A stretch of 64,000 nucleotides of DNA from NCBI GenBank assembly GCA_963754985.1, contig CAVWIJ010000012.1:514249-578248 (forward strand), written 5' to 3'. The notes below the pieces were generated by a model that was not told where the DNA came from, searched no databases, and saw only the letters and a program-made list of their open reading frames with translations. Below are positions 16,848 through 36,069 of the stretch, piece after piece (positions within the stretch are counted from its first letter, which is position 1; the number at the start of each line of letters is the position of its first letter). Origin of the DNA: an uncultured Holophagae bacterium (GTDB taxonomy: Bacteria > Acidobacteriota > Thermoanaerobaculia > Thermoanaerobaculales > Sulfomarinibacteraceae). Both the position numbers and the translations under genes were made by a program.

Positions 16848-17136
16848 TGCCCGTCTCCGTATCCGTGCCCGCATCCGCGCCGGGGAGCCTGCCCTGAGCG
16901 AGCGGCGCCCATTCGACTCGGAGCTGGCGGGCTCCTCTCAGGGCAGGCTCGAGCGCCGGAAGTCGAAGGGTCCCCATGGTCGCACGTGGGACTTACCGAT
17001 CGCGAAATGGCTGTTGCTTGACGAGACCCTTCGACTCGCCGCCCTCGCGTGCGGCTCGCTCAGGGTGACAAACGAGGACGGCTCGGAAGCGGGCGCGGAA
17101 GCGGAAGAGGAAGCGGGCGGGAGGGGCCTATGCCCC
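16848..17136. repeat. Composite intergenic repeat (locus R2): minus-type hexamer arm, 14-bp hairpin, 115-bp conserved module, plus-type hexamer arm
   Basis: A perfect 14-bp inverted repeat joins 16885-16898 and 16937-16950. The 115-bp module at 16954-17068 is about 92% identical to 22000-22114. The core CGGGCGCGGAAGCGGAAG sits at 17090-17107, and GGGGCCTATGCCCC at 17123-17136. Confidence 0.7.
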
Positions 17137-18770: not shown

Positions 18771-20396
18771 ACCTCCAGCCGGTCCTCCGGGTCCAAGAGC
18801 ACGTGCGGGTTGAGGGTGCCGTCGGGATCCACCTCGGCGGCAACGCGGGCGAGCATCCGCCGGCCGAGCTCTCCCACCTCGCGCTCGAACCACGGCGCGT
18901 GCCACTGGCCGACGCCGTGGTGGTGGCTGAGCGTGACACCGGCGTCGACCAGGGCCTGGCTCGCGGCCCGCTTGACGGTCGCCCAGCGGGCGATGCTCGC
19001 CTCCGGGTCGCCGGCGCAGCGGAAGAAGAAGGTGAAGTACAGTGAGGCGCCGTCGCGGTAGGGGTGCGAGACGTGGCAGAGCACCGCCACCCGCTCGCCG
19101 TCGCCGGCCAGCGCCCCGCCGATGGCGGCTCCCACCTGCTCCCGCACGGCCGGGACCGCGGACCAGACCGCGGCGGTCTCCAGCGTGTCGGTTGCCCAGC
19201 CGAGGTCGAGCAGGGACTCGCGGAGGTAGGGGTGGCGGTAGCGGTCGCGCAGCCAGTGCCGGCCGGGCCTTGAACCGAGCACGACGCCGCGGTGGGCGCG
19301 GACGGTGGCCCGCCCGCAGAGCACGACATCGCGCACGCAGCCGCGCTCGCCGGAGCTGCCGTAGAGCAGGAGGCAGGCGTCCTCGCCCAGGCCGCGCAGA
19401 GCCAGGTAGCGCCGCACCAGGCCGGCGCCGGCCGACGCGGCGAGCCCGATCGCCATCGCCATCTGGGTCTCGCTGGCGTCGGACAGCCGGAGCAGCGTCA
19501 GCGGCACCCCGCTGACCACCAGCTCGCGCACCACATCGAGCCCCGGCTGGAGGCCGGGCAGCAAGGCGCCCTCGACGATCGTCATCGCGGGCCGGGCGCG
19601 GACCCGCAACGTCGCTTCGGTGATGACGCCGAGCCGGCCCTCGCTGCCGAGCACGAGCTGGCGCAGGTCGGGGCCGGCCGCCGAGGCGGGGCGCTCCGGC
19701 AGCCGCAGCCGCCCGGCCGGGGCGATCAGCTCGAGCCCGGCCACCATGTCCTCGATGCGGCCGTAGCCCAGCGACTCTTGCCCGGCTGAGCGGGTGGCGA
19801 CCCAGCCGCCGACGGTCGAGAGCTCCCACGACTGGGGGAAGTGGCCGAGCGTCAGCCGGTGCTCAGCAAGGGCGGACTCCACGGCAGGTCCGGTCGTGCC
19901 CGGGCCGAAGGTGGCGAGGCCCGAGACCGGGTCGAGCCGCGTCAGACCGGCCATCCGTTCGAGCTCGAGGATGAGCGTCGGCGACGAGTCGGCGACCACG
20001 TTGACGCCGCCGGTGACCGAGGTCCCGCCGCCCCAGGGGATCACTCGCACCCCGGCCCGCCGGCACTCGTCGAGGACGGCGGCGACTTCGCCGGCGTTCG
20101 CCGGGCGGCAGACGCCGTCCGGAAGGGCCGGGATGAGGCCGGTGCGCAGGCGGATGACGTCGACCAGGCCCTGGCCGCGGCAGTGGGCGAGCCGGTCGCG
20201 GGGATCGACGCTGAGCTCGCAGGGCAGCTGCGGCAGTGGGCGGGCCGGCAGAGACGGCGGCTGACCCGGGCCCACGGCGAGCGGCGGTCCAGGCGGCCCG
20301 ACCCGCCGCTCGAGCCACGCGAGGAGCTGCGGCGACGGCGGGTAGACCTCACCCTCGAACCCCCACCCGCCGAGGCGTCGCGTTCGTTGTCTGCAT
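18767..20396 (-). CDS. FAD-linked oxidase of the alkyl-DHAP synthase (AGPS)-like family with one N-terminal frame break
   Basis: Track ORF 18767..20275 shows VIPWGGGTSVTGG, GHFPQSWELSTVGGWVATRSAGQ and GVTLSHHHGVGQ. Upstream in the same frame, RRLGGWGFEGEVYPPSP lacks any start codon. The ATG at 20396 (MQTTNATPRR) is one frame off, implying an indel in the G-run near 20365. Confidence 0.75.
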
Positions 20397-20398
20397 CA

Positions 20399-20688
20399 GA
20401 GGCGAGAGTATATCTCCGCTTCCCCTTCCGCTTCCGCGCCCGCATCCGCTTCCGAGTCCGCTTCCGGATTGGGGGCAGGGGGGGAGTCCCTCGCGGGGTG
20501 CCGCCGCAGCACCGCCCGCGGGGTGGAGTCTGAACCGCCACCGAGCCTTTCCCGATCGATCGCGACGCAGTGGTGAAGGTCAAATCGGGCGCGGAAGCGG
20601 GCGCGGAAGCGGAAGGGGGCACGGGCACGGAGACGGGCACGGGCACTGAAGCGGAAGCGGAAGCGGATCAGGCCGAGCGGTCTGACGA
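20399..20688. repeat. Composite intergenic repeat (locus R3) with a perfect 22-bp inverted hexamer-arm pair
   Basis: CCCCTTCCGCTTCCGCGCCCGC (20422-20443) is the exact reverse complement of 20597-20618, with a 153-nt spacer. Further GGCACG/GCGGAA hexamers run to about 20665. Confidence 0.75.
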
Positions 20689-21874
<1,186 letters not shown>

Positions 21875-21943
21875 TGTTTCCTAGCGCTGCCCGGACTGCA
21901 AGCAGACTCGACCGACGTGACCGACGACGTTCGATGGACCTTT

Positions 21944-22210
21944 CTCCCGTGCCCGATTCCGCGCCCGGGGAGCCTGCCCTGAGCGAGCGGCGCGATCAGC
22001 GCCGGGAGTCGAAGGGTCCCCATGGTCGCACGTGGGACTTACCGATCGCGAAATGGCTGTTGCTTGAGGAGATCCTTCGACTCGCTGTCCTCGCGGACAG
22101 CTCGCTCAGGATGACTCGTGGGGGGAGCGGGGAAGGAAGGTGGACTCGGGCCCGGAAGCGGAAGCGGAAGCGGGAGGGGGCCTTATCACCTCTCACCTAT
22201 CGCCTATCAC
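21944..22210. repeat. Composite intergenic repeat (locus R4), the second copy of the 115-bp module, plus a heptamer tract
   Basis: The module lies at 22000-22114. Hexamers CCCGGAAGCGGAAGCGGAAGCGGG lie at 22150-22173. Four 7-nt units CCTTATC/ACCTCTC/ACCTATC/GCCTATC lie at 22181-22208. Confidence 0.7.
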
Positions 22211-22222
22211 TACAATGTCTCC

Positions 22223-25054
22223 GTGAGCGCTCTCACCGACCACCAGCGCCGGACCCTGGCCGACAGCGGCTGCGAGGTGCGCAGCGACGCCCTGACCCGG
22301 ACGCTCTACGCGACCGACGCCTCGATCTACCGGATCGAGCCGCGCGCGGTCGCCTTCCCGCGCTCGGCGGCCGAGACCGCGGCGCTCCTGCGCGCGGCGG
22401 CCGGCGCCGGGCTGTCCGTCATCCCCCGCGGCGCCGGCACCGGGCTGGCCGGCGGCGCGCTCGGCGACGGCGTGGTCGTCGACCTCGCCCGCCACAGCCG
22501 GTGGATCGACGGCCTCGACCTCGAGCGGCGGACCGTCCGCGTCGGCGCCGGGGTCGTGCTCGACCAGCTCAACGCCTTCCTCCGTCCCCACGGGCTGTGG
22601 TTCGGGCCGGACGTCGCCACCTCCTCCCGGGCCACCCTGGGCGGGATGATCGCCAGCAACTCCTCCGGCGCCCACGCGCCGGTCTACGGCACCACCGCCG
22701 ACCACGTCGAGGCCCTGGAGGTGGTGCTGGCGGACGGCACCGTGGCCCTCGTCGGGCGGGACGGCGCCGGGCTCGAGACGCTGCGCGACGAGGTCGACCG
22801 GGTCGTGGCGCGAGCATGCGGCCGCGATCGCCGACCGACTGCCGGACCTGCTCGTCAAGCACTGGCCGGGCTACGGTCTCGACGAGGTCCTGCGCCACCC
22901 GGGCGATCTCACGCGCCTGCTGTGCGGCAGCGAGGGCACGCTCGCGGCCGTGAGCTCGGCCGTGCTCCGGGTCGTGCCGTTGCCCACGCGCCGCAGCCTC
23001 GGGGTCGTCTTCTTCGCCTCGATGGCCGAGGCCATGGCGGCGGCGGTCGAGCTGCTCGAGCTCGAGCCGGCGGCGATCGAGCACATCGACCGACCCGCTC
23101 GTCGACCAGACCCGCGGCCAGCGCGAGTTCGCAGGCGGCGCGGGCCCTGCTCGGACTCGACGATGAGCCCTGCGAGTCGATCCTGATCGTCGAGCTCTTC
23201 GGCGAGGCGGAGGACCGCCTCGAATCGCTCGTCCGCTCCCGGCTCGGGTCGCGGCGGATGGCGCTGCGCGACCCGGCCGAGCAAGAGTTGGTGTGGGGTG
23301 TGCGGCGTGCCGGCCTGTCGCTGCTGAGCTCGATGCCAGGGTCGGCCAAGCCGGCCACCGGCATCGAGGACGTCTGCGTGCGGCCGCGCGACCTGCCGGC
23401 GTACGTGGCGGGGCTCCAGGAGATCCTGGCCCGGCTCGGCCTGAGCGCCTCGTTCTACGGCCACGTCGCGTCGGGCGAGCTCCACGTGCGGCCGGTCCTC
23501 GACCTGCACCGCGCCGAGGACGTCGCGAGGCTGCGCCGGGTCGCCGACGAGGTCGCGGACCTGTGCCGGCGCTTCGGCGGGTCGTTGGCCGCCGAGCACG
23601 GCCTCGGCATCGCACGCACCGAGTACCTCGAGGGCCAGGTCGGACCGGAGCTCGTCGCGGCCACGGCCGCGATCAAGCGGCTGTTCGATCCCGCCGGCGT
23701 GCTGAACCCGGGAAAGGTGGTCGACGACGGCCGCTATCGCATCGACCGCGACCTCCGGCTCGGCCCCGGCTCCGAGCTGGTGCTGACCTTCGCCGAGACC
23801 CTCGGCTTCGTCGACCGCGACCGCTCCTTCGCCGGCAACCTCGAGCAGTGCAACGGCTGCGGCGGCTGCCGCAAGGACGCGCCCACCATGTGCCCGACCT
23901 TCGTCGCCACCGGCGAGGAGATCCAGTCGACGCGCGGCCGGGCCAACACCATCCGGGCGGTGCTCGAGGGGCGGCTGGCCGCCGGCAGGCTGGACTCCGA
24001 GGAGCTCAGCGAGGCCCTCGAGAACTGCCTGTCGTGCAAGGCCTGTCGCCGCGAGTGTCCGTCCAACGTCGACCTCGCGCTGCTCAAGGCCGAGCTGCTG
24101 CACGCCCGCCACCGGCTTGCCGGCGTGCCCCTGCGCGACCGAGTCATTGCCGCGGCCGACGTCCTCGGCCGCCTCGGCTCGAGCGTGCCGTGGCTCGCCA
24201 ACGCGGTCGCCGGCTCGGCGCCGGGCCGCCGCCTCATCGCAGCCGCGCTCGGCTTCGACCCCTCCCGCCCGCTGCCCGCCTTCGCCGGGCAGCGCTTCGA
24301 CCGCTGGTTCGCCGCCCGGCCGCGGCCTTCGCCCGGCAGGAGGGGCCGAGTCGTGCTCTGGGACGACACCTGGGTCCGCTACCACGAGCCCGGGATCGGT
24401 CGCGCTGCGGTGGCGGTGCTCGACGCCGCGGGCTACGAGGTGGTGCTGGCGGAGGGCCGCCGCTGCTGCGGCCGGCCGGCGGCCAGCCGCGGGTTGCTCG
24501 ACGACGTGCGGCGCCTCGGCGAGCACAACGTTGCCCTCCTCCGTGATTTCGCCGAGGGCGCGTCGATCGTCTTCCTCGAGCCTTCCTGTTACTCGATGTT
24601 CATCGACGAGTACCGGCAGCTCCGGATCCCCGGCGCGGCCGAGGTCGCGGCGCGCTGCGTGCTCTTCGAGGAGCTACTGGCCGGCCTGCTGGGCTCGCAG
24701 CCCGACGCGCTGGCATTCCGCGGCGACGGCCTGCGGGTGGCGATCCACGGTCACTGCCACACCAAGGCCCTCGGCGACGCCCGCCTGCTGCCCCGGCTCG
24801 CGCAGCGGATCCCCGGGGCGCGCGCCGAGCTCCTCGCCACCGGCTGCTGCGGGATGGCCGGGGCCTTCGGCATGATGGCGTCGAAGGCGGCCTTGTCGCG
24901 CGCGGTGGCGACGCCCCTGGTGGAGGCGATCGAGTCCCAGCCGGAAGGCACGCTGGTCGTCGCCTGCGGCACGAGCTGCCGGGCGCAGATCCGCCACCTG
25001 AGCGACGCGAAACCTCTGCACATGGCCGAGCTGCTCGCCGCCTCGCTCGCTTGA
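22223..25054 (+). CDS. Fused FAD-binding (GlcD-like) and Fe-S/CCG-domain (GlpC/GlcF-like) oxidoreductase with three +1 shifts that restore the frame
   Basis: The GTG at 22223 is in frame with track ORF 22118..25054. Motifs are PRGAGTGLAGGA, AAEHGLGI, CNGCGGCRK...CP and CLSCKACRRECP (two 4Fe-4S motifs), plus C-terminal CCG-type cysteines (ATGCCGMAG). Residues encoded at about 22808-23131 read in f3/f1 (track ORF 22950..23186). Confidence 0.8.
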   Translation: MSALTDHQRRTLADSGCEVRSDALTRTLYATDASIYRIEPRAVAFPRSAAETAALLRAAAGAGLSVIPRGAGTGLAGGALGDGVVVDLARHSRWIDGLDLERRTVRVGAGVVLDQLNAFLRPHGLWFGPDVATSSRATLGGMIASNSSGAHAPVYGTTADHVEALEVVLADGTVALVGRDGAGLETLRDEVDRVVARACGRDRRPTAGPARQALAGLRSRRGPAPPGRSHAPAVRQRGHARGRELGRAPGRAVAHAPQPRGRLLRLDGRGHGGGGRAARARAGGDRAHRPTRSSTRPAASASSQAARALLGLDDEPCESILIVELFGEAEDRLESLVRSRLGSRRMALRDPAEQELVWGVRRAGLSLLSSMPGSAKPATGIEDVCVRPRDLPAYVAGLQEILARLGLSASFYGHVASGELHVRPVLDLHRAEDVARLRRVADEVADLCRRFGGSLAAEHGLGIARTEYLEGQVGPELVAATAAIKRLFDPAGVLNPGKVVDDGRYRIDRDLRLGPGSELVLTFAETLGFVDRDRSFAGNLEQCNGCGGCRKDAPTMCPTFVATGEEIQSTRGRANTIRAVLEGRLAAGRLDSEELSEALENCLSCKACRRECPSNVDLALLKAELLHARHRLAGVPLRDRVIAAADVLGRLGSSVPWLANAVAGSAPGRRLIAAALGFDPSRPLPAFAGQRFDRWFAARPRPSPGRRGRVVLWDDTWVRYHEPGIGRAAVAVLDAAGYEVVLAEGRRCCGRPAASRGLLDDVRRLGEHNVALLRDFAEGASIVFLEPSCYSMFIDEYRQLRIPGAAEVAARCVLFEELLAGLLGSQPDALAFRGDGLRVAIHGHCHTKALGDARLLPRLAQRIPGARAELLATGCCGMAGAFGMMASKAALSRAVATPLVEAIESQPEGTLVVACGTSCRAQIRHLSDAKPLHMAELLAASLA

Positions 25055-25086
25055 CCACGAAGAGAGTCTGGTGTCCGTGGGCGAGG

Positions 25087-25207
25087 ACCCCCGCCCGCTT
25101 CCGCGCCCCCTTCCGCATCCGGATGACTATTGACGGTCGGGACACGACCGCCCGGATTCGGGCTCGGGCGCGGACTCGGGCGCGGAAGGGGAAGCGGAAG
25201 CGGGTGA
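25087..25207. repeat. Hexamer-arm repeat (locus R5), an imperfect long hairpin
   Basis: CCGCCCGCTTCCGCGCCCCCTTCCGCATCCGG faces CCGGATTCGGGCTCGGGCGCGGACTCGGGCGCGGAAGGGGAAGCGGAAGCGGG across a spacer of about 30 nt. Confidence 0.6.
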
Positions 25208-25302
25208 AGGCACTGAGCCCCCGTCCTGCCAACTGAGCGAACCCGAAACGGCGGACTCTCGTTACTCCACGTGGAAGGATCGATTCCCGGTCCCCGAAAG
25301 GG

Positions 25303-25486
25303 CTAGCCCGGGAATCTCACCGGGTTTCGTCGCGAGGGTGGCGAGGTGCCGTGCGCAGTGGGGATTTCGTCCCGAGGGGCGCGGAGGCGTACTTGACAGT
25401 ACGTCGAGCACCGCGAGGCGAGAAAGCACCGCTGAGCGCGGTACATCGTCGGCCGCAGTAGAAAGTTGGTGAGATATCCGGGCTAG
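25303..25486. mobile_element. MITE-like 180-bp element, copy 1, with 19-bp terminal inverted repeats (17/19 match)
   Basis: CTAGCCCGGGAATCTCACC at 25303-25321 faces GGTGAGATATCCGGGCTAG at 25468-25486. The interior is about 92% identical to 32944-33123. There is no ORF of its own. Confidence 0.6.
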
Positions 25487-25510
25487 AATCGGTCCAGTCC
25501 GGGAGGCTAG

Positions 25511-26479
25511 ATGCAGATCTCGTTCGTGGAACCCCTGTCGCGCGCCTGGGAGCGGATGCGGCGGATGCTGTTCGCGCCCTTCGAGCTCGCACGTTGGCTG
25601 GTGCTCGGCTTCTCGGCGTGGCTCGCCGGGCTGGCGAGCAGCGACTGGGGCACGAAGCTGGCGGGGAACGCGCCGGACTCGATCGACGAGCACGCGCTCG
25701 TGCCGTTCGAGTTCGGGGAGCTGGCGGACGCGATCGCCGACCACCTCGTGTGGCTGCCGCTCATCCTGCTCGCCGTGCTCGTCGTCGCCGCCATCCTGAT
25801 CGCGCTGCTGTGGGTGAGCTCTCGCGGCAAGCTCGTCTTTCTCGACAACGTGGTCCACGAGCGGGCGGCGATCGTCGAGCCGTGGAAGCGCCTCGGAAAG
25901 CTCGGCGACTCCCTGTTCTGGTGGCGGCTCGGCTTCGCGGCGATCGTGCTCGCGATGGTGCTGGCGGTTCTGGCCGCGGTCGTCCTGCCGGCGGCCGCGG
26001 CATCGCTTGGCGAGACCCTGCGCGGCCTGTCGATCGCCGCCATCCTGCTCGGAGCGTTGGCACTCGCGACGATCGCCGTGGCGGCGTTGCTCGTGCTGCT
26101 GCTCCTCGAGAGCTTCGTGATCCCGATCATGTACCGCTTCGACCAGTCGGCCACGGCGGCGTGGCGGACGCTGCTGCCCTGGATCAAGCGCTTCCCCGGC
26201 TGGTTCCTCGCCTATGCCGCCGTGATCTTCCTCGCGGCGATCGCCTTCCAGATGATGGTGCTGGTCCTCTGCCTGTTCACCTGCTGCATCATCCTGATCC
26301 CCTACGTGGGCACGGTGATCCTGCTGCCGGTGTGGGTCCTGTACCGGTCCTATAGCGTCGAGTTCCTGGCCCAGCTCCACCCGGACTTCGACCTCTTCGA
26401 GGCGGCGGCCGTCACGCCGGCGCCGATCGAGACGGGCGAGGCGTCGCGCGAGCCCGAGTCCGGGGGTGACGTGGGCTGA
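25511..26479 (+). CDS. Hypothetical multi-pass membrane protein
   Basis: Intact 322-aa ORF with 6-7 hydrophobic helices (for example LPLILLAVLVVAAILIALLWV and MMVLVLCLFTCCIILIPYVGTVILLPVWVLY). I recognise no catalytic motif. Confidence 0.65.
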   Translation: MQISFVEPLSRAWERMRRMLFAPFELARWLVLGFSAWLAGLASSDWGTKLAGNAPDSIDEHALVPFEFGELADAIADHLVWLPLILLAVLVVAAILIALLWVSSRGKLVFLDNVVHERAAIVEPWKRLGKLGDSLFWWRLGFAAIVLAMVLAVLAAVVLPAAAASLGETLRGLSIAAILLGALALATIAVAALLVLLLLESFVIPIMYRFDQSATAAWRTLLPWIKRFPGWFLAYAAVIFLAAIAFQMMVLVLCLFTCCIILIPYVGTVILLPVWVLYRSYSVEFLAQLHPDFDLFEAAAVTPAPIETGEASREPESGGDVG

Positions 26480-26489
26480 GGACGTGCCG

Positions 26490-26905
26490 GAAGGGCAGTC
26501 GGGAACGGGAACGGAAACCCCTCGACTCGCGACGCCCTTACGCCGCTCGCTCGGGGAAGACTCCTCGGGCGCGGATCCGGCTCCGTCCTGCGGAGTACGC
26601 CGTGACACGAGCGGGCGGGCGGGTGGTTCACCGCCTCACTGCCTCACTGCTTCGGGATCGGGGACGGCAGCCCGTCCTCATCGTCGTCTTCGCAATCTTT
26701 GCGCCTTCGCGGTTCAAGTGCCCGATGGCGGGCGCGGAGACCCTTAGACTTGCGGCGCCGTGGCGCCGCTGCGCTCAGGGCAGGCTCCACGGGCACGGGC
26801 GCGGAAGCCTTCGACTCGCGGCATCGCTTCGCCGCTCGCGCAGGGCAGGCTCGCGTCGGGCGCGGGCGGGGGATCTAACCCCTAACCCCTGTCACCTAAC
26901 TCGCT
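26490..26905. repeat. Composite intergenic repeat region (locus R6)
   Basis: GGGAACGGGAACGGAAAC lies near 26500. The unit CTTCGACTCGC...GCTCGC.CAGGGCAGGCTC occurs twice (26520-26560 and 26806-26852). Heptamers CTAACCC/CTAACCC/CTGTCAC/CTAACTC lie at 26875-26902. Confidence 0.55.
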
Positions 26906-26909
26906 TCGC

Positions 26910-27842
26910 TCACGGCCTCGCAGCTTTCCACCCGTAGCCGTGATACTCCCAGTCGACGCGGTCGGGACGCAGGGTGAGCACGCCGAATCCTTCGCCGGTG
27001 CCGTGCCAGGCGCCGCGCCACCACTTGCCGCACAGGGCGCCGCCGGTGATGAAGGTGGTTTCTCGCCAGCGCAGCATCTCGGCGACGTGGAGGTGGCCCT
27101 GGAGCACGAGCAGCAGGTTGTGTCCCTCGAAGAGCTCCAGGACCTCCCGATTGTTGACCACCACCCGGTTGGCAGGCGCGACCGCGGTCGCCCCCTCGGT
27201 GGCCTGGTAGAAGCCGGTGAGCAGCGGCAGGTGGCTCGCGAGGACGATCGGCGTCGAGCGGTCGATCGACTCGAGCTCGGTCGCCAGCCAACGCAGCTGG
27301 TCCGGCTCGATCCGGCCGTGGTACTGGTCGTCGCCGCCGACCACCGACACCGCGTCGAGAATCAGGAGCCGGTAGCCGCCAACCCCGACCGACCGGTAGG
27401 TGCGCTCGAGAGAGAAGGCGCGGCGGAACTCGCCGCGCGGGTCGGCGCTCGGCGGGCTGCCGTCCTCCGGAATTGCCGCCACGAGGTCGTGGTTGCCGAG
27501 CGCCGGCTCGACCCTGGCCCGCAGCGCGCGGTGCATTTCGAGGTAGGCCTGCCAGCGCGGCGCCACCGTCGCGGACGAGGACTGGAAGCCGTCGGTGATG
27601 AGGTCGCCGCCGGCCACGATGAGCTCGGGCCGCTGTGCGTTGATCGCGGCCGCCGCCATCGCGAGCGCGCGCGGGGTCTCCCACTCGACCCTGGCGTGCA
27701 CGTCGGTGAAGAAGACGATCCGGAAGGCCTCGCCGGCGGCGCCGGGTGCGGCCCAGCTCGCGCGCAGCGGCAGGCCGGCCAGCGCGGCGCCGGAGAGGGC
27801 CAACAGCTCTCTCCTCGACAGGTGCTGGTTGGAACGGCTCAT
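26910..27842 (-). CDS. Tat-exported metallophosphoesterase
   Basis: The ATG at 27842 is in frame within track ORF 26910..29108. The twin-arginine signal is SRRELLALSGAALAG. Calcineurin-like motifs are FFTDVHA, GGDLITDG, GNHD and LQGHLH. Confidence 0.8.
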   Translation of the reverse strand: MSRSNQHLSRRELLALSGAALAGLPLRASWAAPGAAGEAFRIVFFTDVHARVEWETPRALAMAAAAINAQRPELIVAGGDLITDGFQSSSATVAPRWQAYLEMHRALRARVEPALGNHDLVAAIPEDGSPPSADPRGEFRRAFSLERTYRSVGVGGYRLLILDAVSVVGGDDQYHGRIEPDQLRWLATELESIDRSTPIVLASHLPLLTGFYQATEGATAVAPANRVVVNNREVLELFEGHNLLLVLQGHLHVAEMLRWRETTFITGGALCGKWWRGAWHGTGEGFGVLTLRPDRVDWEYHGYGWKAARP

Positions 27843-29100
27843 GAGGTGGCCTCCAGTCGGAGTGGGCGACGACGGACCAGGGCGTCGAGCGCCAGCAGGA
27901 TGGCCGCCGCCGCGAGCAGCCCGAAGCGCAGGCCGCGCTCCGAGACGGCCGTGATGAGGTGGGCGGCCGAGGAGCTGACGAACGGCCTCTCGGGGTCGTA
28001 CTGCTGCTCGAGAAGCTGCCGCAGGCGGGGCTTCAGCGTGAAGCTGGACTGCGCCAGGGTGCGGCCGAAGAGCCGCTCGAGCAGCTGCTGCTCCCGCAGC
28101 GCGATGGTCGCGTGCTCGCGAGCCGCCGCGGAGCCAGGTGGAGCCGAGCCGAGGCGACGAAGGTGGACATCCCGGCTGAAGAGGTGGACTCGCGCCTCGT
28201 ACAGGAAGGGGTCGTCGACCTCCGAGTGCTCCTGCTGGAAGCGCCGGTACCGCCCTTCCGGATAGCGGTCGAGCAGCGCCGCAACCTCGGCGGAACGGTG
28301 GCGGTCCTGCTGCGCGAGCTCGGCAAGGGTCAACCTGGATTTGAGCTCGCCGATGCCCGGCAGCCGGTGGCGGAAGCCGTACTCGGCCATGGCGTTGTCG
28401 GCGAGGGCGAGCAGCGCCAGGCCCGGGACGCGCTCCGCGTACCATGCGACGCGCTCGGGCGTGTTGGCCAGGCACAGCGCGAGCAGCAGGAGGAGGGCCG
28501 ACGCGAGGCGCAACGCCAGCGAGACCGACCAGGCCCGCGGCCGCCGCCACGGCCCGGGGTCCAGGCGCCACAGGGCTGCCGCCGCGAGCACGCAGGCGCC
28601 GGCGTTGACGGCCAGGTCCCGGAGGTCCCAGAATCCTGCCTGGGACGATCCACTGGATGATCTCGTCGACGGTTCCGACCAGGGCGCCCAGCAGCGCGGC
28701 GGTCGACCAGGATTGCCACGTCGGGCTCGGCCGGGCGCATCGCCCGGTAGAGCAGCACCGCGAGGATGCCGAACTGAATGAGGTGGACCGCCTCCTCGGG
28801 TCGCCTCCGCAGAATGCCAGGCGGATGCCCCGAAGGCGGCCGCGATCGCGACCAGCCAGGCGAGGTCGAGCAGGGTGGTCGACCGCGGCGACCGGCGCAG
28901 GAGGATGAACGCGGTCCCGAGTGCCGCCGCGACTGCAACGAGAACCGCCCCGAGGATCCACTCGGACCCGGGCGAGCCGAACACGTTCTCCTGGAGCGGG
29001 CGTACCAGAGGGATGCCCGCGAACAGGAGCGCGGTCCACGCCGCGGCCGCGATCGCGGCCGGCTCGGTGCCGCGTCGGCTCGCGCGAGAGCCGGTCAGGA
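27839..29100 (-). CDS. VanZ-like membrane protein with a long C-terminal extension, at least 2 frame breaks and an unresolved start
   Basis: The C-terminal two-thirds lies in track ORF 27839..30043. The core is split over 28330..28938 (EEAVHLIQFGILAVLLYRA) and 26910..29108 (LLGALVGTVDEIIQWIVPGR), then continues as WDLRDLAVNAGA. The stop overlaps the next start (ATGA at 27839-27842). Confidence 0.45.
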
Positions 29101-29212
29101 TCAGCCACTCGCTACGATCGTACCCGACGCCGGCGCCGCCTGGGACGGCTGGTGCGGCGTCGTCGGCTGCGGTACAACTGGTGGCCGCATACCGGCGACA
29201 GCGGAGGCGGCC

Positions 29213-30799
29213 ATGGCGCGCGGCGACCACATCCTGGCCATCGACCACGGCACCCAGAGCGTGCGCGCACTGCTCTTCGACCCGAGGGGCACCCTCGTCC
29301 ACAAGGCGCGGGTCGAGGTCGAGCCCTACACCTCGCCGCGGCCGGGCTGGGCGGAGCAGGACCCGGAGCTCTACTGGCGCTCGCTCGGCGAGGCGTGCCG
29401 GCTGCTGTGGGCCGCATCGTCGGTGCCGCGGGAGGCGGTCGCGGGGGTCGCCCTGACCACCCAGCGGGCGACCATGATCAACGTCGACCGCGCACGGCAA
29501 GCCGCTGCGGCCGGCCATCGTCTGGCTCGACCAGCGCCGCACCGAGGGCCTGGCGCCGGTCGGCGGCGCGTGGGGCGTCGCCTTCCGCGCTCGCGCGGAT
29601 GGCGGAGACGGTGGCCTATTTCCAGGCCGAGGCCGAGGCCAACTGGATCCATGCCAACCAGCCGCGAGGTCTGGGAGCAGACCCACAAGTACCTGTTCCT
29701 GTCCGGCTTCCTGACCCACCGCCTGGTCGGCCGCTTCGTCGACTCGGTCGGCTGCCAGGTCGGCTACGTGCCCTTCGACTACACGCGGCCTGCGCTGGGC
29801 GGGTCCACGGCGACTGGAAGTGGCGGCGCCCTGGCGATCGAGCGCGAGATGCTGCCCGAGCTCGTGCCGCCCGGCGAGGTGCTGGGCGAGATCACGGCGG
29901 CGGCCTCGGCGGCCACCGGCATCCCCGCGGGCCTGCCGCTGATCGCGGCGGCCGCCGACAAGGCCTGCGAGGTCATCGGGGCCGGCTGCCTCGAGCCCCA
30001 CGTCGCCTGCCTGTCCTACGGCACCGACGGCCACCATCAACACGACGCACCGGCGCTACGTCGAGGCGATCCCGATGATCCCGCCCTACCCGGCGGCGGT
30101 GCCCGGCGCCTACACGCTCGAGGTGCAGATCAACCGCGGCTACTGGATGGTCGTCGTGGTTCAAGCGGGAGTTCGGGCTCCGCGAGCAGCGGATCGCGGA
30201 CGAGCGCGGCATCGCGCCGGAGGAGCTCTTCGACGAGCTGGTGGCCGCCGTCCCGCCGGGCTCGATGGGGCTGGTGCTGCAGCCCTACTGGTCGCCCGGC
30301 GTCAAGGTGCCCGGGCCCGAGGCCAAGGGTGCGGTGATCGGCTTCGGCGACGTCCACACCCGGGCCCATCTCTACCGGGCGATCCTCGAGGGTCTGGCCT
30401 ACGCGCCTCCGGGAGGGGGGCGAGCGCTGCCAGCGGCGCAGCGGCGTGCCGCTGACCGAGATCCGGGTTGCCGGCGGCGGGTCGCAGAGCGACGCCGCGA
30501 TGCAGATCACGGCCGACGTCTTCGGCCTGCCCGCGGCACGGCCCCACGTCTACGAGGCCTCCGGCCTGGGAGCGGCGATCGACGCGGCCGTCGGCCTCGG
30601 GCTGCACCCCGACTTCGAAACCGCGGTCGCGGAGATGACCCGGCGCGGCCGCCAGTTCGAGCCCGACCCGGCAAGCCACGAGGTCTACGAGGGGCTCTAC
30701 CGCGAGGTCTACCTCAAGATGTACGCGCGGCTGCGGCCGCTCTACGAGGAGATCCGCAGGATCACCGGGTATCCGAAGGGGTTGGGGGAGAGGGGATAG
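29213..30799 (+). pseudogene. FGGY-family carbohydrate kinase (xylulokinase/glycerol-kinase-like) with at least 6 frame changes as assembled
   Basis: The ATG at 29213 gives MARGDHILAIDHGTQSVRALLFD. Further fragments are [70 protein letters not shown] and IRVAGGGSQSDAAMQITADVFG, spread over f2, f1, f2, f3, f1 and f2. Confidence 0.65.
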
Positions 30800-31060
30800 G
30801 GAGTAGGGCCCCCGCTTCCGCTTCCGCGCCCGCTTCCGATACCGGTTCCGCGCCCGACCTGATTCCGCTCCCGTCCCCGTTCCCGACCCGGCCGGCCCTG
30901 ATCGGGCCGCACGTCCGTGTCCGATCTTCAAGGCATCATCCGAGCTCGCGTTGCGCGCGGTTTGCGCGGCGGTGGTCGTCCCCGCCGCCAAGGTCGAGTC
31001 GTCGCGTCGGAAGCGGACTCGGGCGCGGAAGCGGAAGCGGGCGCGGGAATCAGCCACGCG
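30781..31060. repeat. Composite intergenic repeat (locus R7): heptamer/G4 tract plus a perfect 22-bp inverted hexamer-arm pair
   Basis: GGGGGAGAGGGGATAGGGAGTAGGG lies at 30784-30808 and covers the kinase stop codon. CCCGCTTCCGCTTCCGCGCCCG (30811-30832) is the exact reverse complement of 31019-31040, with a 186-nt spacer. Confidence 0.75.
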
Positions 31061-31077
31061 TCTTCTGGCCGCGTGAG

Positions 31078-31857
31078 CTACCAGCTCCGGGCAAGCAGCG
31101 TCACACCGATGACGAGCAGGGCGGCGCTCACCAGACGCCGGAAGGTCGCTTCGTCGATCCGCAGGTGGATGCGGTCACCGACGAGTGCGCCGAGCATCGC
31201 CGCCGGCACCAGGGCGAGCGAGGACCAGACCCTGGGCTCGGTGATGAGCCCGAAGGCGGCGTACGAGGGGAGCCGGAACGCGGTCATCAGCAGGAAGATC
31301 GCCATCAGGTTGCCGCGGAAGGCAGCCTTGTCGCTGCCCCGGAGCTGGTAGTAGAAGATCAGGGGCGGTCCCCCGGTGCCGAACAGGCCGGTCAGCACGC
31401 CCGAGACCAGGCCGACCGGCGGCGCGGTCCAGGCAGGGACTGCCCGCGGGGGATGGTCAGGGGTGAGCAGGAACAACCCGCCGGCGATCGCCATCACCAC
31501 CCCGAGCAGAGGCAGCAGCAGGCCGAGGTCGCCCGCCGACAGCAGCCAGGTGCCGATGGGGATGCCGGTCGCGACACCGAACATGACCAGCAGCACGCCG
31601 CGCCACGAGATGTGGCGCCAGGAGGCGGCGACGACGTAGATCTCGGCGGGCAGGTTGACCAGCAGCAAGAGGACGACCACGTCGCGGAGCTCGGGCATGA
31701 TCATGGCCATCAAGCCGACCGCGACCAGGCCGGCGCCGAAGCCGAGCGCCACGTAAATGGCCTCGGCGCACGCCAGGATCAGGCCGGCAACGAGGAACTG
31801 GCCTGGCGACGCGAACACGGTCTCCACCGTCTCTCCGCGTAACAGTCTATCCGGCAC
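31078..31857 (-). CDS. TauE/SafE (TSUP) family anion permease
   Basis: Intact 259-aa ORF with 7-8 TM helices and the two family repeats GFGAGLVAV and GLFGTGGPPLIFY. Confidence 0.8.
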   Translation of the reverse strand: MPDRLLRGETVETVFASPGQFLVAGLILACAEAIYVALGFGAGLVAVGLMAMIMPELRDVVVLLLLVNLPAEIYVVAASWRHISWRGVLLVMFGVATGIPIGTWLLSAGDLGLLLPLLGVVMAIAGGLFLLTPDHPPRAVPAWTAPPVGLVSGVLTGLFGTGGPPLIFYYQLRGSDKAAFRGNLMAIFLLMTAFRLPSYAAFGLITEPRVWSSLALVPAAMLGALVGDRIHLRIDEATFRRLVSAALLVIGVTLLARSW

Positions 31858-31973
31858 GGCCGTGCCCGCGGAATGCGGCCGGCCTCCGACGGGTTGGCAA
31901 GGCCGATGCGAGAGCTGCGCCTTGCCGCCGCCGTTGCAACGACAGAGCTCGCTGCGGTCGGTACACTGTCCCC

Positions 31974-32795
31974 GTGACCGAGCGAGGGCATCCGCTGAAC
32001 GCCGTTGTGGTCAATAAGGTCGAGGTCTCTCCCGGCCTCATGGTGCTGCGCGTCGCCGCCGACGGCTGGGAGCTTCCCGAGTTCACGCCGGGCCAGTTCG
32101 CGGTGCTCGGGCTGCCGCCCGAAGCGCCCCGCTGGGCGACCGCCGACCCCGAGGAGAAGCGGCCGAAGTCCGACCGGATGATCCGCCGCGCCTACTCGAT
32201 CGCGTCCTCGTCGGTTTCGCGGGAGTACTTCGAGTTCTTCATCAACATGGTCCAGTCGGGGGAGCTGACGCCCAGGCTGTTCGCCCTCGCCACGGGGGAC
32301 CGGATCTGGCTCGGCCCCAAGGTCACGGGGGCCTTCACGCTCAACGAGGCGCGCCCGAACAGCCACCTCGTGCTGGTCGCCACCGGCACCGGCCTCGCGC
32401 CGTACATGAGCATGCTGCGCACGAAGCTGCCTGCCACGCCTGCCCGGCGGATCGCGGTGCTGCTCGGCGCGCGCCACTCGTGGGACCTCGGCTACCATTC
32501 CGAGCTGCTGGCCATGCAGCAGCAGCACGCCAACCTGAGCTATCTGCCGACGATCAGCCGGCCCGACGGCGAGGTACGGCCGTGGTCGGGCCGCGTCGGT
32601 TACGTGCTCGAGGCTTGGCGCGACGGCGCGGTCGAGCGCGCCTGGGGCTTTCCACCGACCCCGCTGACGACCAGCGTCTTCCTGTGCGGCAACCCGCGCA
32701 TGATCGATGACATGTGCGCGCTGCTGGCCAGCGACGGATACAGGGAGCACAGCCGCGGTTACCCCGGCGAGATCTTCGTCGAGCGCTACTGGTAG
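31974..32795 (+). CDS. fpr: Ferredoxin-NADP(+) reductase
   Basis: Intact 273-aa ORF with RAYSIASS (FAD binding), LVATGTGLAPYMSML (NADP binding) and a C-terminal FVERYW. Confidence 0.85.
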   Translation: MTERGHPLNAVVVNKVEVSPGLMVLRVAADGWELPEFTPGQFAVLGLPPEAPRWATADPEEKRPKSDRMIRRAYSIASSSVSREYFEFFINMVQSGELTPRLFALATGDRIWLGPKVTGAFTLNEARPNSHLVLVATGTGLAPYMSMLRTKLPATPARRIAVLLGARHSWDLGYHSELLAMQQQHANLSYLPTISRPDGEVRPWSGRVGYVLEAWRDGAVERAWGFPPTPLTTSVFLCGNPRMIDDMCALLASDGYREHSRGYPGEIFVERYW

Positions 32796-32841
32796 CGGAT
32801 TTGCCGGCGGCGGGCGGACGACCACCTCGGCATGGATTCTG

Positions 32842-32870
32842 CCTCCGGATGCGCGCAGCGCATCCGGAGG
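32842..32870 (+). terminator. Perfect 13-bp stem-loop downstream of fpr, a possible terminator with no T-tract
   Basis: CCTCCGGATGCGC (32842-32854), loop GCA, then GCGCATCCGGAGG (32858-32870). It lies 47 nt after the fpr stop. Confidence 0.4.
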
Positions 32871-32943
32871 AGCGTGTGAGGCAGAGGCCAACCACAACAA
32901 CCACATCAGAAGCGCGCTCAGGGGCCTATGCCCCACACGCTCC

Positions 32944-33123
32944 AGCCCGGATATCTCACCGGGATTCGTAGCGAGGGCGGCGAGGTGCCGTGCGCAGTGG
33001 GGATTTCGACCCGAGGGGCGCGGAGGCGTACTTTATGGTACGTCGAGCACCCCGAGGCGAGAAAGCACCGCTGAGTGCGGTACATCGCCGGCCGCAGTAG
33101 AAAGTTGGTGAGATATCCGGGCG
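32944..33123. mobile_element. MITE-like 180-bp element, copy 2, with perfect 16-bp terminal inverted repeats
   Basis: GCCCGGATATCTCACC at 32945-32960 faces GGTGAGATATCCGGGC at 33107-33122. The element abuts the elbB stop codon (33124-33126). Confidence 0.6.
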
Positions 33124-33783
33124 CTAGGCCATCTCGAGCAGCGCGTCCACTGCCTTCTCGATGCCCGCGGCGGCCTCGGAGATCCGCTCGGCGAGCATGT
33201 AGGCCGGGGTCGAGATCAGCTTGCGCTCGCGATCCACCACGAAGTCGCGGACTGGACAGGCGACGTGGCGGGCGCCCATCGTCTCGAGGGCGCTGGCGGT
33301 CGCCGGGTCGTTGCCGATGGTGAGCTGCGGGCTCTGCTCGCCGAGCAGTTTCGCGATCAGCGCCGGTGCGATGCACTCCGCGGCAATCGGCTTGCCCTGG
33401 GCGTGCACCTCCCGCACCAGCCGCGCGACCTCCGGGTGGACCGTGCAGTCCGGGCCGGCGACCGCGAAGTTGCACAGGTTCTTGGCGGCGCCGAAGCCGC
33501 CGGGAAGGATCAGCGCGTCGAGCTCGCCGGCGCTGACCAGGGCGACGTCACGGATAACGCCGCGCGCGATCCGCGCCGCCTCGACGAGCACGTTCCTGCT
33601 CGCGCCCTCCTCGACCTCGCCGGTGAGGTGGTTGACGACGTGGAGCTGGGAGGTGTCGGGTGCGCACAGGACCATCTCCGCCCCGCGCCGGTCGAGCGCG
33701 AGCATCGTGATCACCGACTCGTGGATCTCGGCGCCGTCGAAGACGCCGCAGCCGGACAGGATCACGCCGACCTTCTTTGCCAT
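33124..33783 (-). CDS. elbB: DJ-1/PfpI-family protein ElbB (isoprenoid biosynthesis glyoxalase-like)
   Basis: The ATG at 33783 is in frame in track ORF 33124..33936. MAKKVGVILSGCGVFDGAEIHESV, LILPGGFGAAKNLC and PIAAECIAP are ElbB hallmarks. Confidence 0.85.
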   Translation of the reverse strand: MAKKVGVILSGCGVFDGAEIHESVITMLALDRRGAEMVLCAPDTSQLHVVNHLTGEVEEGASRNVLVEAARIARGVIRDVALVSAGELDALILPGGFGAAKNLCNFAVAGPDCTVHPEVARLVREVHAQGKPIAAECIAPALIAKLLGEQSPQLTIGNDPATASALETMGARHVACPVRDFVVDRERKLISTPAYMLAERISEAAAGIEKAVDALLEMA

Positions 33784-33938
33784 GGCTCGCCTCCGTGGGT
33801 GACCGTCTCGAGATGGTCCACCCGTCATTCTACCGTCTCCGGCCGACGTGGCACGCGGGTCGACGGCGTCCACTTGCCCGTGGCCGAGGTGGGAGCAATA
33901 CTGATCGTGGAGACAAGGGGCAACCGAGGAGGGCAATC

Positions 33939-34691
33939 ATGGCGAGGACACCTCACGGGAGCTTGGGCAGCAGCGTGGCGGTGCGACCGGCGGAGTTCCA
34001 GATGCGCTTTCGCGAGCTTCTGGAACGGGCAGCGGCTGCGCGCAAGCCGTTGTTGGAACGACCCGCCCAGCTCGGGCCCTTCCTGACCGTTTCCCGCGAG
34101 GTCGGATCCGGCGGCGCCGAGGTGGCGCGGCTGGTCGGCCTGCGGCTCGGCTGGGCGGTATTCGACAAGGAGCTGGTCGAGGATCTCGCCCGCCGGCTCG
34201 AGCTGTCGCCCCAGATGGTCGAGCTGCTGGACGAGACTCGCTCCGACTGGTTCCACGAGACCATGCTCAGCCTCATGAACTCGAGGATCGTGCTCCAGAA
34301 CAACTACCTGTCGATGCTCGGCAAGGTCATGCACCTCGCGGCCTACGAGGGGAAGGTGATCTTCGTTGGCCGCGGCGGCCACCTGCTGCTCCCCCGTGAC
34401 GCCGGGCTGAGGGTGCGGGTGATCGCCCGGCGCGAGACCCGGCTGGAGACCTACCAGGCGCGGGAGGGGCTGAAGGCCGACGAGGCGGAGCGCGAGCTCG
34501 ACCGGCTCGAGGCTGGCCGCGCCGACTTCGTGCGCCGCCACTTCCGCCGCGAGCCGGACGACCCCTACCAGTACGACATGGTGCTCGACTCGTCGATGTT
34601 CGGGATGGAGGGCTGCGCCGAGCTGGTGTGTCGGGCGCTGGAGCTTCGCGGCTTGATTGCCAAGAAGGAGGGATTAGGGGCTCGGGACTAG
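33939..34691 (+). CDS. Cytidylate-kinase-like (AAA/P-loop kinase) family protein
   Basis: The ATG at 33939 is preceded by GAGGAGGG. FLTVSREVGSGGAEVARLVGLRLGW is the P-loop-like start of the Cytidylate_kin2 family. The last 8 codons and the stop lie inside repeat R8. Confidence 0.65.
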   Translation: MARTPHGSLGSSVAVRPAEFQMRFRELLERAAAARKPLLERPAQLGPFLTVSREVGSGGAEVARLVGLRLGWAVFDKELVEDLARRLELSPQMVELLDETRSDWFHETMLSLMNSRIVLQNNYLSMLGKVMHLAAYEGKVIFVGRGGHLLLPRDAGLRVRVIARRETRLETYQAREGLKADEAERELDRLEAGRADFVRRHFRREPDDPYQYDMVLDSSMFGMEGCAELVCRALELRGLIAKKEGLGARD

Positions 34692-34868
34692 GGGAAAGGC
34701 CGCCACCCGTCCCCGTTCTCGTCCCCGTTCCCGTTCCCGTTCCCGGGTCCGCACGCTGCTCCGCTTCTGCGCGCCGCTTCCGCGCCCGCATCGCGAGTCC
34801 GCGTCCCCCGCAGCGGCGAGCCCAACCGTCCGGGCTCGGAAGCGGACGGGGAAGCGGAAGCGGGTGGA
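34665..34868. repeat. Composite intergenic repeat (locus R8): 7-nt-phased G4 tract plus hexamer arms
   Basis: GGGATTAGGGGCTCGGGACTAGGGG lies at 34670-34694 with G-runs starting every 7 nt. (CCGTYC)n runs over 34708-34745, CGCTTCCGCGCCCGC lies near 34775, and CGGAAGCGGACGGGGAAGCGGAAGCGGG lies at 34837-34864. Confidence 0.65.
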
Positions 34869-34926
34869 TGTGCGTGACCGAGACGCAACAGGCTGTGGCT
34901 TCGGTGTCCTTCTCCGGCCTCTCCCC

Positions 34927-35316
34927 TCAGTTCACCGGCAGGGGCTGCGAAAGCTCGAAGGGCGCGATGTCGATATCGAAGGCCTCGCCGTCCCGGGTGA
35001 CCATCTGGTAGCTGCCGTGCATGGAGCCGAAGGGTGTCGGCAGCGGGCAGAACGAGGTGTACCCGAAGGACTCCCCCGGCGCCAGGACCGGCTGCTCGCC
35101 GACCACTCCCGGCCCGGACACCTCCTCGACCTCGCCGTGGGCATCGGTGATGATCCAGTGCCGGCTGACCAGCTGCACGACCTCCTCGCCCTGATTCGTG
35201 ATCCTGATCCGATAGGCGAAGAACCACATCCGGCGCAGCGGCTCCGAGCGCTCCGGCACGAAGCTCGAGTCGACCTCCACCAGGATGCCTCGGGTGCGTG
35301 CCTGAGAGCTGCCCAT
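34927..35316 (-). CDS. apaG: ApaG (DUF525) protein
   Basis: Intact 129-aa ORF. FFAYRIRITNQGEEVVQLVSRHWIITDAHGEVEEVSGPGVVGEQPVL.PGESF.Y.S closely matches the ApaG pattern. Confidence 0.85.
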   Translation of the reverse strand: MGSSQARTRGILVEVDSSFVPERSEPLRRMWFFAYRIRITNQGEEVVQLVSRHWIITDAHGEVEEVSGPGVVGEQPVLAPGESFGYTSFCPLPTPFGSMHGSYQMVTRDGEAFDIDIAPFELSQPLPVN

Positions 35317-35541
35317 CGTGGTCTCCCGTCCTGCTCACGACCCCACTGCCGCATCGGGGTCGCGGGTTGTCCAACCGCCCGTGTCGTGGCGCGGATACAC
35401 TGAGAAGCCGTGGTCGGGTCCGCAGCCCGCGGGTCGGCGGCGGAGAAAGGGTGCCATGATTTCAACCCTCGCGCCACTCCCGGCATCGTATGGGATGTGG
35501 ACGCACTGGCGAGGACTGCCGCGATACCGCACGAGGCGATC

Positions 35542-36069
35542 ATGATGGTGCCGGCCGGCTGCGGGGACGCTCTGCAGGGCGCGCGTTCGGGTGACATGGC
35601 CGCCTTCGAGGAGCTGTACCGGGCCACCGTGGGGCGCGTGCATTGCCTGTGCCTGCGGATGTGCAGGGACCCCCAGCTCGCCGAGGAGCTGACCCAGGAA
35701 AGCTACATCAGGGCATGGCAGAAGCTGGCGACCTTCCGCGGCGACAGCCTGTTCTCGACCTGGCTGCACCGGATCGCCGTCAACGTGGTCCTCGGGCACT
35801 TCCGCAGCTCGGGCCGCCGCCTCGATGCCGTTTCCGGCGACGAGGTCGAACCCGTCGAGCCGGTGGTGCCGGCGGCGCCGGGCCTGGCCCTCGACCTGGA
35901 GCGCGCGATCGCCGCCCTGCCGACCGGGGCCCGGACGGTGTTCGTGCTGCACGATGTCGAGGGTTACACACACGACGAGATCGCGCGGATGGCGGGAGTC
36001 GCGGTGGGCACCTCCAAGGCTCAGCTCAGCAGGGCCCGCGCCCTGCTGCGAAAGGCGTTGTCTCCATGA
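35542..36069 (+). CDS. ECF-type RNA polymerase sigma factor
   Basis: An internal ATG of track ORF 35410..36069. Region 2 is FEELYRATVGRVHCLCLRMCRD...AEELTQESYIRAW and FSTWLHRIAVNVV. Region 4 is VFVLHDVEGYTHDEIARMAGVAVGTSKAQLSRAR. Confidence 0.8.
   Translation: MMVPAGCGDALQGARSGDMAAFEELYRATVGRVHCLCLRMCRDPQLAEELTQESYIRAWQKLATFRGDSLFSTWLHRIAVNVVLGHFRSSGRRLDAVSGDEVEPVEPVVPAAPGLALDLERAIAALPTGARTVFVLHDVEGYTHDEIARMAGVAVGTSKAQLSRARALLRKALSP

Follow-up and report, generated by a model that had tools for sequence, protein, structure and literature searches.

The 64,000-nt stretch of DNA analysed here, referred to as the window, comprises positions 514,249 to 578,248 of contig CAVWIJ010000012.1 and belongs to a 4.73-Mb, 32-contig, ~70%-GC metagenome-assembled genome (MAG; G000), rated 72% complete, of an uncultured Acidobacteriota of the class Thermoanaerobaculia. 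In this window a 278-nt spacer separates the convergent 3′ ends of a gene for an FGGY-family sugar kinase and a gene for a TauE/SafE-family membrane protein, and the whole of this spacer is bracketed by an inverted pair of short arms (Table 1). The left arm, CCCGCTTCCGCTTCCGCGCCCG, occupies 30811-30832 (+) and starts 11 nt past the kinase stop; the right arm, CGGGCGCGGAAGCGGAAGCGGG, is its exact reverse complement, and the array that holds it ends 31 nt short of the TauE stop. The complementary match is perfect over 22 nt and cannot be extended, not by one base on either end. A preliminary description of this DNA reported the perfect 22-bp pair correctly, but it placed the right arm at 31019-31040 with a 186-nt interior; the arm is found at 31020-31041 and the interior is 187 nt long. 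Set against random sequence, such a pair is far beyond chance.

An 18-nt core of the arms, CTTCCGCTTCCGCGCCCG, is also found exactly in both arms of a second pair at 20422/20597 (20425-20442 on the + strand and 20598-20615 on the − strand), as had been noted before. When up to two mismatches are allowed, the core has 18 matches in the window, against 0.03 expected from shuffles. We found that the two 22-nt arms are independent and ordinary representatives of a family of short tandem-repeat arrays that is specific to this lineage and spread over the whole genome. A period-6 scan for arrays of at least four units with CCG in phase returned 878 arrays in G000 and 146 in the reversed sequence that served as control; the 878 arrays merge into 670 arms, 630 of which are intergenic. 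The units are degenerate hexamers of the form CCG-Y-K-Y, and several flavours are mixed within one array. CCGCTT (1301 units), CCGCGC (735) and CCGTTC (283) are the most common, followed by CCGTGC, CCGAGC and CCGTCT. The C-type units have a C:G ratio of 2-3:1, the hexamer units contain no stop codon in any frame, and a single arm is a C-rich (or G-rich) direct array that is not self-complementary. Array length is narrowly distributed, with 4-6 units in 653 of 732 arrays and a mean of 5.3; the two arms of the kinase-TauE spacer have 8 and 7 units. The ends of the arrays are polar, the outer unit usually being CCGCTT and the inner unit usually one with A (CCGACG, CCGATG or CCGGAT), and the trigrams CTT-CGC-CTT and CTT-CTT-CGC are over-represented 3-4 times. 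A core 21-mer, CCGCTTCCGCTTCCGCGCCCG, is present in 166 exact copies in G000 and in 51, 18 and 8 copies in three congeners, and is absent from the remaining four congeners and from the 23 genomes of other genera that were searched. A literature search with the arm sequence matched Gly-Ser linker primers only.

The 22-bp perfect complementarity follows from this family consensus, since both arms carry the dominant 21-mer. We compared the C-arm and G-arm of 161 same-locus pairs with arms that had been randomly re-partnered. The longest exact complementary run averages 14.5 nt in the true pairs and 14.4 nt in the re-partnered ones, and runs of at least 22 exact bases are found in 15 of the 161 same-locus pairs (9.3%) versus 10.7% of the re-partnered pairs. 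Fifteen pairs genome-wide thus match as perfectly as 30811/31020. Within pairs, unit flavour is weakly correlated (rho 0.2-0.25) and unit number is uncorrelated. Since the arms of one locus match no better than re-partnered ones, their perfect match is no sign that the pair is recent or selected, and on these same measures we reject a pair-specific origin or compensatory evolution. The preliminary description had argued from two perfect pairs that the arms are the unit that matters; what it concluded about the arms stands, whereas the perfection on which it relied is an effect of the family consensus.

A BLAST comparison of the interior of the 30811/31020 pair with that of the 20422 pair returns only 11-12-nt residual pieces of hexamer array, so that the reported dissimilarity is borne out, and neither interior has any other match in G000 or in seven congeneric genomes. 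Because both interiors are unique, the 30811/31020 pair is not a miniature inverted-repeat transposable element (MITE). Homologous interiors, which according to the preliminary description would make this an ordinary MITE family, were not found for either pair. Insertion of a mobile element into the hairpin loop as the source of the 30811/31020 interior is rejected too, there being no second copy in the eight genomes. The idea that this interior might carry small open reading frames (ORFs) or small RNA (sRNA) signals found no backing: it has no Rfam match, consensus scans reveal no promoter-like or terminator-like site in it, and it is unconserved in congeners, on which grounds a conserved sRNA or small ORF is rejected.

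The expectation that all other interiors would likewise be unrelated was only partly right. We compared the 133 interiors that are 40 nt or longer. Of these, 86 are unlike every other interior and 67 have no further match anywhere in the genome; 40, by contrast, share a palindromic module, GGAGCCTGCCCTGAGCGAGCGGCGC...GAGTCGAAGGG. In this 40-member subfamily, long segments that are 90-96% identical set in abruptly where the arm has its outer end and extend ~100 nt inward. From its sequences this subfamily, ~30% of the other pairs, looks like an ordinary MITE-like family. About ten short elements have a common 21-22-nt loop. Even so, the proposal that what propagates or is selected is the arms rather than the interiors is supported: ~670 arrays and 166 exact 21-mers, together with interiors that for both window pairs are unique in G000 plus seven congeners, support the arms as the maintained unit. 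A second repeat family, with a ~55-nt hairpin unit GGAGCCTGCCCTGAGCGAGCGGCGC...GCGCCGCGAGTCGAAGGG, gives ~200 signature matches genome-wide. It abuts hexamer arrays, fills the 40 of 133 interiors just described, and is present in the window at 16885-17068, 22000-22114 and 26740-26860.

Table 1. The kinase-TauE spacer and its neighbours, in window positions
Feature	Position	Strand	Remarks
FGGY-family sugar kinase, 3′ part	30446..30799	+	Left neighbour of the spacer; stop TAG at 30797-30799; Pfam FGGY_C, E 4.9e-10; syntenic orthologues in six congeneric genomes
G-rich 7-nt-periodic tract	30778..30808	+	GGGGTTG GGGGAGA GGGGATA GGGAGTA GGG, read directly; overlaps the kinase stop; outer shell of the repeat mosaic
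Left perfect 22-nt arm	30811..30832	+	Contains the family consensus 21-mer
Full left C-type array	30812..30859	+	Period-6 scan; 8 units, CCGCTT CCGCTT CCGCGC CCGCTT CCGATA CCGGTT CCGCGC CCGACC
Second, inner C-type array	30865..30888	+	Period-6 scan; CCGTTC flavour, CCGCTC CCGTCC CCGTTC CCGACC
Unique interior	30889..31004		No repeat, conserved ORF, promoter-like or terminator-like site
Full right G-type array	31005..31046	+	Period-6 scan; 7 units, CGTCGG AAGCGG ACTCGG GCGCGG AAGCGG AAGCGG GCGCGG; GGAAGC/GGGCGC array at the same place in G006 and G002
Right perfect 22-nt arm	31020..31041	+	Exact reverse complement of 30811-30832
TauE/SafE-family membrane protein gene	31078..31857	−	Right, convergent neighbour; stop reads CTA on the + strand at 31078-31080; Pfam TauE, E 3.2e-30

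At this locus the hexamer array is an inner shell nested within a heptamer outer shell, and the same order is found elsewhere in the genome, G-rich period-7 tracts lying on the outer side of 49 arms versus the inner side of 5. The heptamer tract has at least four runs of three or more G. The hexamer arms have mostly GG (GGAAGC) and some GGG (GGGCGC), so a three-tetrad G-quadruplex would not be expected of them. The heptamer tract also codes for the last seven codons of the kinase (KGLGERG) and its stop. The congener G001 is without this tract, and its kinase stops seven codons sooner, at ...GYP, with a (GTTGAAA)3 array immediately following. Repeat arrays thus rewrite gene 3′ ends. The left array is in frame with the kinase stop, but a coding or readthrough role is excluded, since 218 stop-proximal arms are spread evenly over the three phases (82/69/67, p = 0.40). 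For the 30811/31020 locus itself little changes, except that gene callers should not extend ORFs through the arrays. The kinase is split, with FGGY_N in the ORF at 28778-30337, FGGY_C in the ORF at 30446-30799, both in the same frame, and an in-frame stop between them; the split marks either a pseudogene or a frame error in the assembly of this long-read MAG.

Six congeners have the FGGY-TauE spacer in syntenic position. In G003, G006 and G002, whose coding sequences are 85-90% identical in this comparison, the heptamer tract again lies over the kinase stop; these spacers have inverted hexamer arms too, for the most part CCCGTT/GGGAAC in flavour, and interiors that differ. Judged from these three spacers, the inner array at 30865-30888 is probably the counterpart of the CCCGTT-type left arm of the relatives. 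The spacers of G002 and G006 have a palindromic module in common, and the place of the G000 right arm is taken in both by an array of matching units (Table 1). In G001, G004 and G005 the spacer is without hexamers and has AT-rich heptamers such as (GTTGAAA)3. Across the window, coding blocks align at 74-94% with G003 and G006 and the alignments break at the array-bearing spacers; of ten such spacers compared, most hold arrays in those two genomes also, with different sequences. The G-type arm at 34831-34860 and its inner flank (ccaaccgtcCGGGCTCGGAAGCGGA...) are nearly identical in G000 and G006, and the opposite arm is expanded only in G000; thus arms can persist by descent and can be gained singly.

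Copy number varies widely among these genomes. The pattern (CCGYNY)4CCG occurs 622 times in G000, 812 times in G006, 145 times in G005 and 5 times in G004. It is present in 24 of 39 genomes searched in the family, where counts run from 0 to 812, in few genomes of the rest of the class, and is mostly at zero in controls. Heptamer and hexamer arrays of other units are found in unrelated Thermoanaerobaculia MAGs. At G006:C4:288113-288557, six tandem super-units of ~80 nt, each (GGGAAC)n followed by (GGAAGC/GGGCGC)n, form a higher-order satellite of the same hexamers. The 60 kb of G001:C10:130001-190000, from a GC-rich genome without the 21-mer, contain almost no hexamer arrays and 11 AT-rich heptamer arrays, partly in the same spacers; these have the units TTGAAAA, AGTCAAA, ATTTCGA, and ATTGCGA paired with its inverse.

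The position and orientation of the arms obey clear rules. For gene calls we relied on a crude caller of our own, based on codon usage, whose calls take in 71% of the genome; owing to assembly frame breaks the distances to starts are approximate, while those to stops are reliable. Neighbouring arms within 1 kb of each other are ordered C-to-G in 161 cases versus G-to-C in 20, and in 17 of the G-to-C cases a distance of over 400 nt separates the two arms; a survey of 160 kb from G003 and G006 gave C-to-G pairs only. On the way from a gene into its spacer, C-type words are most frequent at 20-50 nt where the gene edge is a stop and at 60-100 nt where it is an approximate start. The 5′ end of the C-strand faces the nearer gene in 474 of 625 arms, with 331 stop edges and 297 start edges. 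About half of the arms are solo, and 71% of arms without a detected partner have this same gene-facing orientation. An arm is present at 30-33% of the edges of convergent spacers, at 18-23% of those of tandem spacers and at 14-17% of those of divergent spacers. A left C-arm and a right G-arm occur together in 156 spacers where 59 are expected, a 2.6-fold excess (length strata, p < 1e-6 in each), and the interiors of C...G pairs span 2 to 776 nt. Any model must explain the C-first polarity, the pairing without arm matching, the heptamers outside the hexamers, and a range of 5-812 copies among congeners.

The closest described relatives of the hexamer family are the paired heptamer arrays of Xanthomonas and Nostoc and the short tandemly repeated repetitive (STRR) heptamers of heterocystous cyanobacteria; the parallel with repetitive extragenic palindromes (REPs) and bacterial interspersed mosaic elements (BIMEs) is one of function only. 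Rehm et al. 2015 (PMC4692102) described GGGNATC and GGGGA(C/T)T heptamer arrays in Xanthomonas campestris, X. axonopodis and Nostoc PCC 7120. About four units are preferred, and the 5′ side is always near an ORF whatever the orientation of that ORF. Each Xanthomonas genome has 70-75 convergent inverted pairs with the potential to form stem-loops. There is a deficit between divergent ORFs, most arrays are transcribed, no function or link to insertion sequences was found, and in sister species the same spacers are occupied by heptamer arrays of differing length and sequence (PMC4692102). The hexamer family resembles these arrays in its short tandem units, preference for about four copies, intergenic position, fixed end near an ORF, frequent convergent pairs, scarcity between divergent ORFs, lack of a link to insertion sequences, and presence in the same spacers of sister species with variation in length and sequence, and the G-rich heptamer shell at 30778-30808 fits their description directly. 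It differs in that its unit is 6 nt (CCG-Y-K-Y) with several flavours per array, that its polarity is opposite in G/C terms, the C-rich strand having its 5′ end at the ORF, and that its arms form an inner shell inside a heptamer shell. The TAACTGA intergenic direct repeats of Beggiatoaceae, Cyanobacteria and Bacteroidetes, which are related to the cyanobacterial heptamer repeats, lie just upstream of starts, include one indirect set among 170 in the Guaymas Basin "Maribeggiatoa", and have been proposed to bind a translational regulator (MacGregor 2015; PMC4679880). In common with STRR and TAACTGA repeats, the hexamers are lineage-specific, abundant, intergenic tandem repeats of 6-7 nt with 2-6 or more copies per site and a patchy phyletic spread; unlike them, they form inverted pairs at both spacer edges. 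The hexamer family extends the short-unit tandem-repeat hairpin phenomenon of Xanthomonas and cyanobacteria to 6-nt units in uncultured Acidobacteriota.

We propose, with a probability of about one half, that the pair in the FGGY kinase-TauE spacer works as a hairpin or insulator for transcript ends arriving from both sides, a role that we infer from the placement and folding of the arms. On whichever strand is transcribed or unwound, the C-rich array would come first and zip to the G-rich array, and this pairing would close the spacer into a long GC-rich hairpin. REP/BIME elements of E. coli stabilise transcript 3′ ends and attenuate read-through, and the hairpin would similarly give 3′-end protection and a block to read-through, as REP/BIME do in enterobacteria. 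The predicted minimum-energy RNA fold pairs both arms on both strands (z = −2.7 and −2.3). Any C-arm can pair with any G-arm over ~15 exact bases. On this reading such pairing would be all that matters, which would leave the interior to drift and make co-evolution of the arms unnecessary. Canonical intrinsic terminators are absent from 30600-31250 on either strand, and in 20 kb of the window (16001-36000, ~17 genes) there are 2 terminator-like sites of hairpin plus T-run versus 3.9 expected from shuffles, which suggests that canonical intrinsic terminators are little used there. With the scanned stretch practically without hairpin-plus-U terminators, a hairpin role would fill a gap; the arms themselves are unlike an intrinsic terminator in that the loop here would be 187 nt rather than 3-8 nt and no T-run follows. 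The excess of arms in convergent spacers, their position just after stops and their paired occurrence all fit a transcript-end hairpin. The arrays probably arise and are remodelled by slippage and by copying of ~30-36-nt arm segments, a step that we put forward more tentatively than the rest. If arrays do mark transcript ends in a terminator-poor genome, they would aid operon and untranslated region (UTR) annotation in a poorly known phylum.

Several observations weigh against the transcript-end hairpin. The z-scores of the folds are modest, strong folding being a property of any sequence with 71% GC. The need for a hairpin leaves the C-first order unexplained, since a G-to-C order would pair equally well. 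Nearly half of the arms face starts (297, versus 331 at stops), where a terminator role is less natural and where the arms must sit in or next to a 5′ UTR or promoter. Congeners differ in copy number from 5 to 812, a spread more readily expected of a repeat that proliferates and can be dispensed with than of a core function. It is possible, if on balance doubtful, that the arrays are repeat DNA without a function, selfish or neutral, that arises when the polymerase slips on units of 6-7 nt, spreads through copying or recombination, and persists at gene edges since insertions are tolerated there. This would account for the patchy abundance (812, 622, 145 and 5 arrays in congeners; 24 of 39 family genomes with arrays), for unit flavours that differ between species at the same loci, and for the quite different AT-rich heptamers of G001 in the same spacers. 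Scarcity in divergent, promoter-bearing spacers is what purifying selection on a parasite is expected to produce, and no function was found by Rehm et al. either. Slippage alone, however, does not provide the C-then-G polarity (161 vs 20) or the 2.6-fold excess of paired arms, and the narrow 4-6-unit lengths with distinct outer and inner end units call for a further mechanism as well; moreover, G000 and G006 have some arms in common by descent, one of them being the G-arm near 34831-34860, which is conserved with its flank.

If the arrays were instead the terminal inverted repeats of a foldback- or MITE-like mobile element, recognised in trans and mobilising any DNA that lies between them, unrelated interiors would be explained. 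Foldback (FB) transposons of Drosophila and other eukaryotes have long inverted termini built of variable numbers of short tandem repeats, and their central loop can be unrelated between copies; they are eukaryotic, of kilobase scale, and of demonstrated mobility. As so described, they share with the hexamer pairs the tandem-repeat inverted termini and unrelated interiors, and the 166 exact 21-mers point to recent copying. The subfamily with a shared palindromic interior of ~100-170 nt, in copies 90-96% identical with a sharp start at the outer end of the arm, and the conserved 21-22-nt loop of about ten copies would also be at home in such an element, and this 40-member subfamily does have the homologous interiors of a MITE. 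The interiors of the 30811/31020 and 20422 pairs, in contrast, are not homologous to any copy and are found nowhere else in eight genomes. An autonomous element with the same arms is rejected: only ten C...G intervals contain genes, and these are of housekeeping character (SDR, HU, HlyD, RNase H, ECF-sigma). No target-site duplication was seen at the arm boundaries inspected by eye, non-exhaustively, and neither mobility nor a coding partner was found for the arms. The arm-bearing spacers are largely the same in three species and therefore reflect positional persistence, not scattered insertion. Together with the three Y1-transposase genes of G000, which have different REPs of their own and no hexamer arm within 3 kb, these points make a mobile element unlikely.

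C-first polarity at both stop and start edges is explained only if the arrays are directional Rho-loading insulators. A polymerase leaving a gene body, sense at the 3′ end and antisense at the 5′ end, would first make a C-rich, G-poor, YC-periodic array resembling a Rho utilisation (rut) site and then terminate, and transcripts born in the spacer would carry the G-rich, Rho-resistant version. The C:G ratio of the C-type units, the onset of the arrays 20-50 nt past stops, the presence of a rho gene in the genome and the scarcity of canonical terminators (none in the spacer; 2 vs 3.9 expected in 20 kb) are in keeping with this. Spacers without arrays, however, show no C>G skew past stops, and there is thus no independent sign of selection for C-rich 3′ regions; general C-rich, rut-like 3′ regions are rejected on the ground that they are absent where no array is present. 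The shell directly on the stop codon is, furthermore, G-rich on the sense strand, and G001 has C-free heptamers (GTTGAAA) at the same place. We regard Rho loading as improbable. Equally little credence attaches to a broader scheme in which the whole system would consist of family-wide polar gene-boundary insulators in Thermoanaerobaculia: the C-rich, YC-periodic array, as the first untranslated RNA, would load Rho or another factor, the G-rich array would protect outward transcripts, and the arrays would be rewritten from a common pool by a putative copying activity. Such a scheme would explain the 166 identical 21-mers, the strict polarity, and paired occurrence without pair-specific matching. 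The least credible alternative is an invertible switch (inverton), with the arms as recombination sites at which a site-specific invertase flips the interior. Invertons, as in Bacteroides, usually have 20-30-bp inverted repeats flanking a 100-300-bp segment, with a consensus shared at many loci, and the geometry of the 30811/31020 pair resembles that layout. But the arms show free variation in both length and sequence, interiors can be as short as 2 nt and as long as 776 nt, and half of the arms are solo. In this spacer, moreover, flipping the interior would switch nothing, as the two genes converge on it with their 3′ ends and it contains no promoter-like site.

The likeness of the hexamer family to REP, BIME and REPIN elements is that it is high-copy and extragenic, commonest after genes, capable of forming hairpins from inverted doublets, mosaic with other modules, and of species-specific consensus at conserved positions. 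Unlike a REP or REPIN, the hexamer arm is not palindromic and has no GTAG-type head, the spacer between arms is not conserved, and no Y1 transposase gene is flanked by hexamer arms. A REP family driven by REP-associated tyrosine transposases (RAYTs) is rejected, as none of the three PF01797 Y1 genes in G000 has an arm within 3 kb and they have their own REPs; Y1 genes occur also in congeners without hexamer arrays. No dedicated transposase for the hexamer arms was identified. G000 also has a classical REP/RAYT system that is separate from the hexamer arms: at C19:45078-46520, tandem ~120-nt repeats with GTAG-headed palindromes (GTAGGCGCGCGTCTCACGCGCGCCAC) stand on either side of a gene for a Y1 (RAYT-like) transposase of 189 aa.

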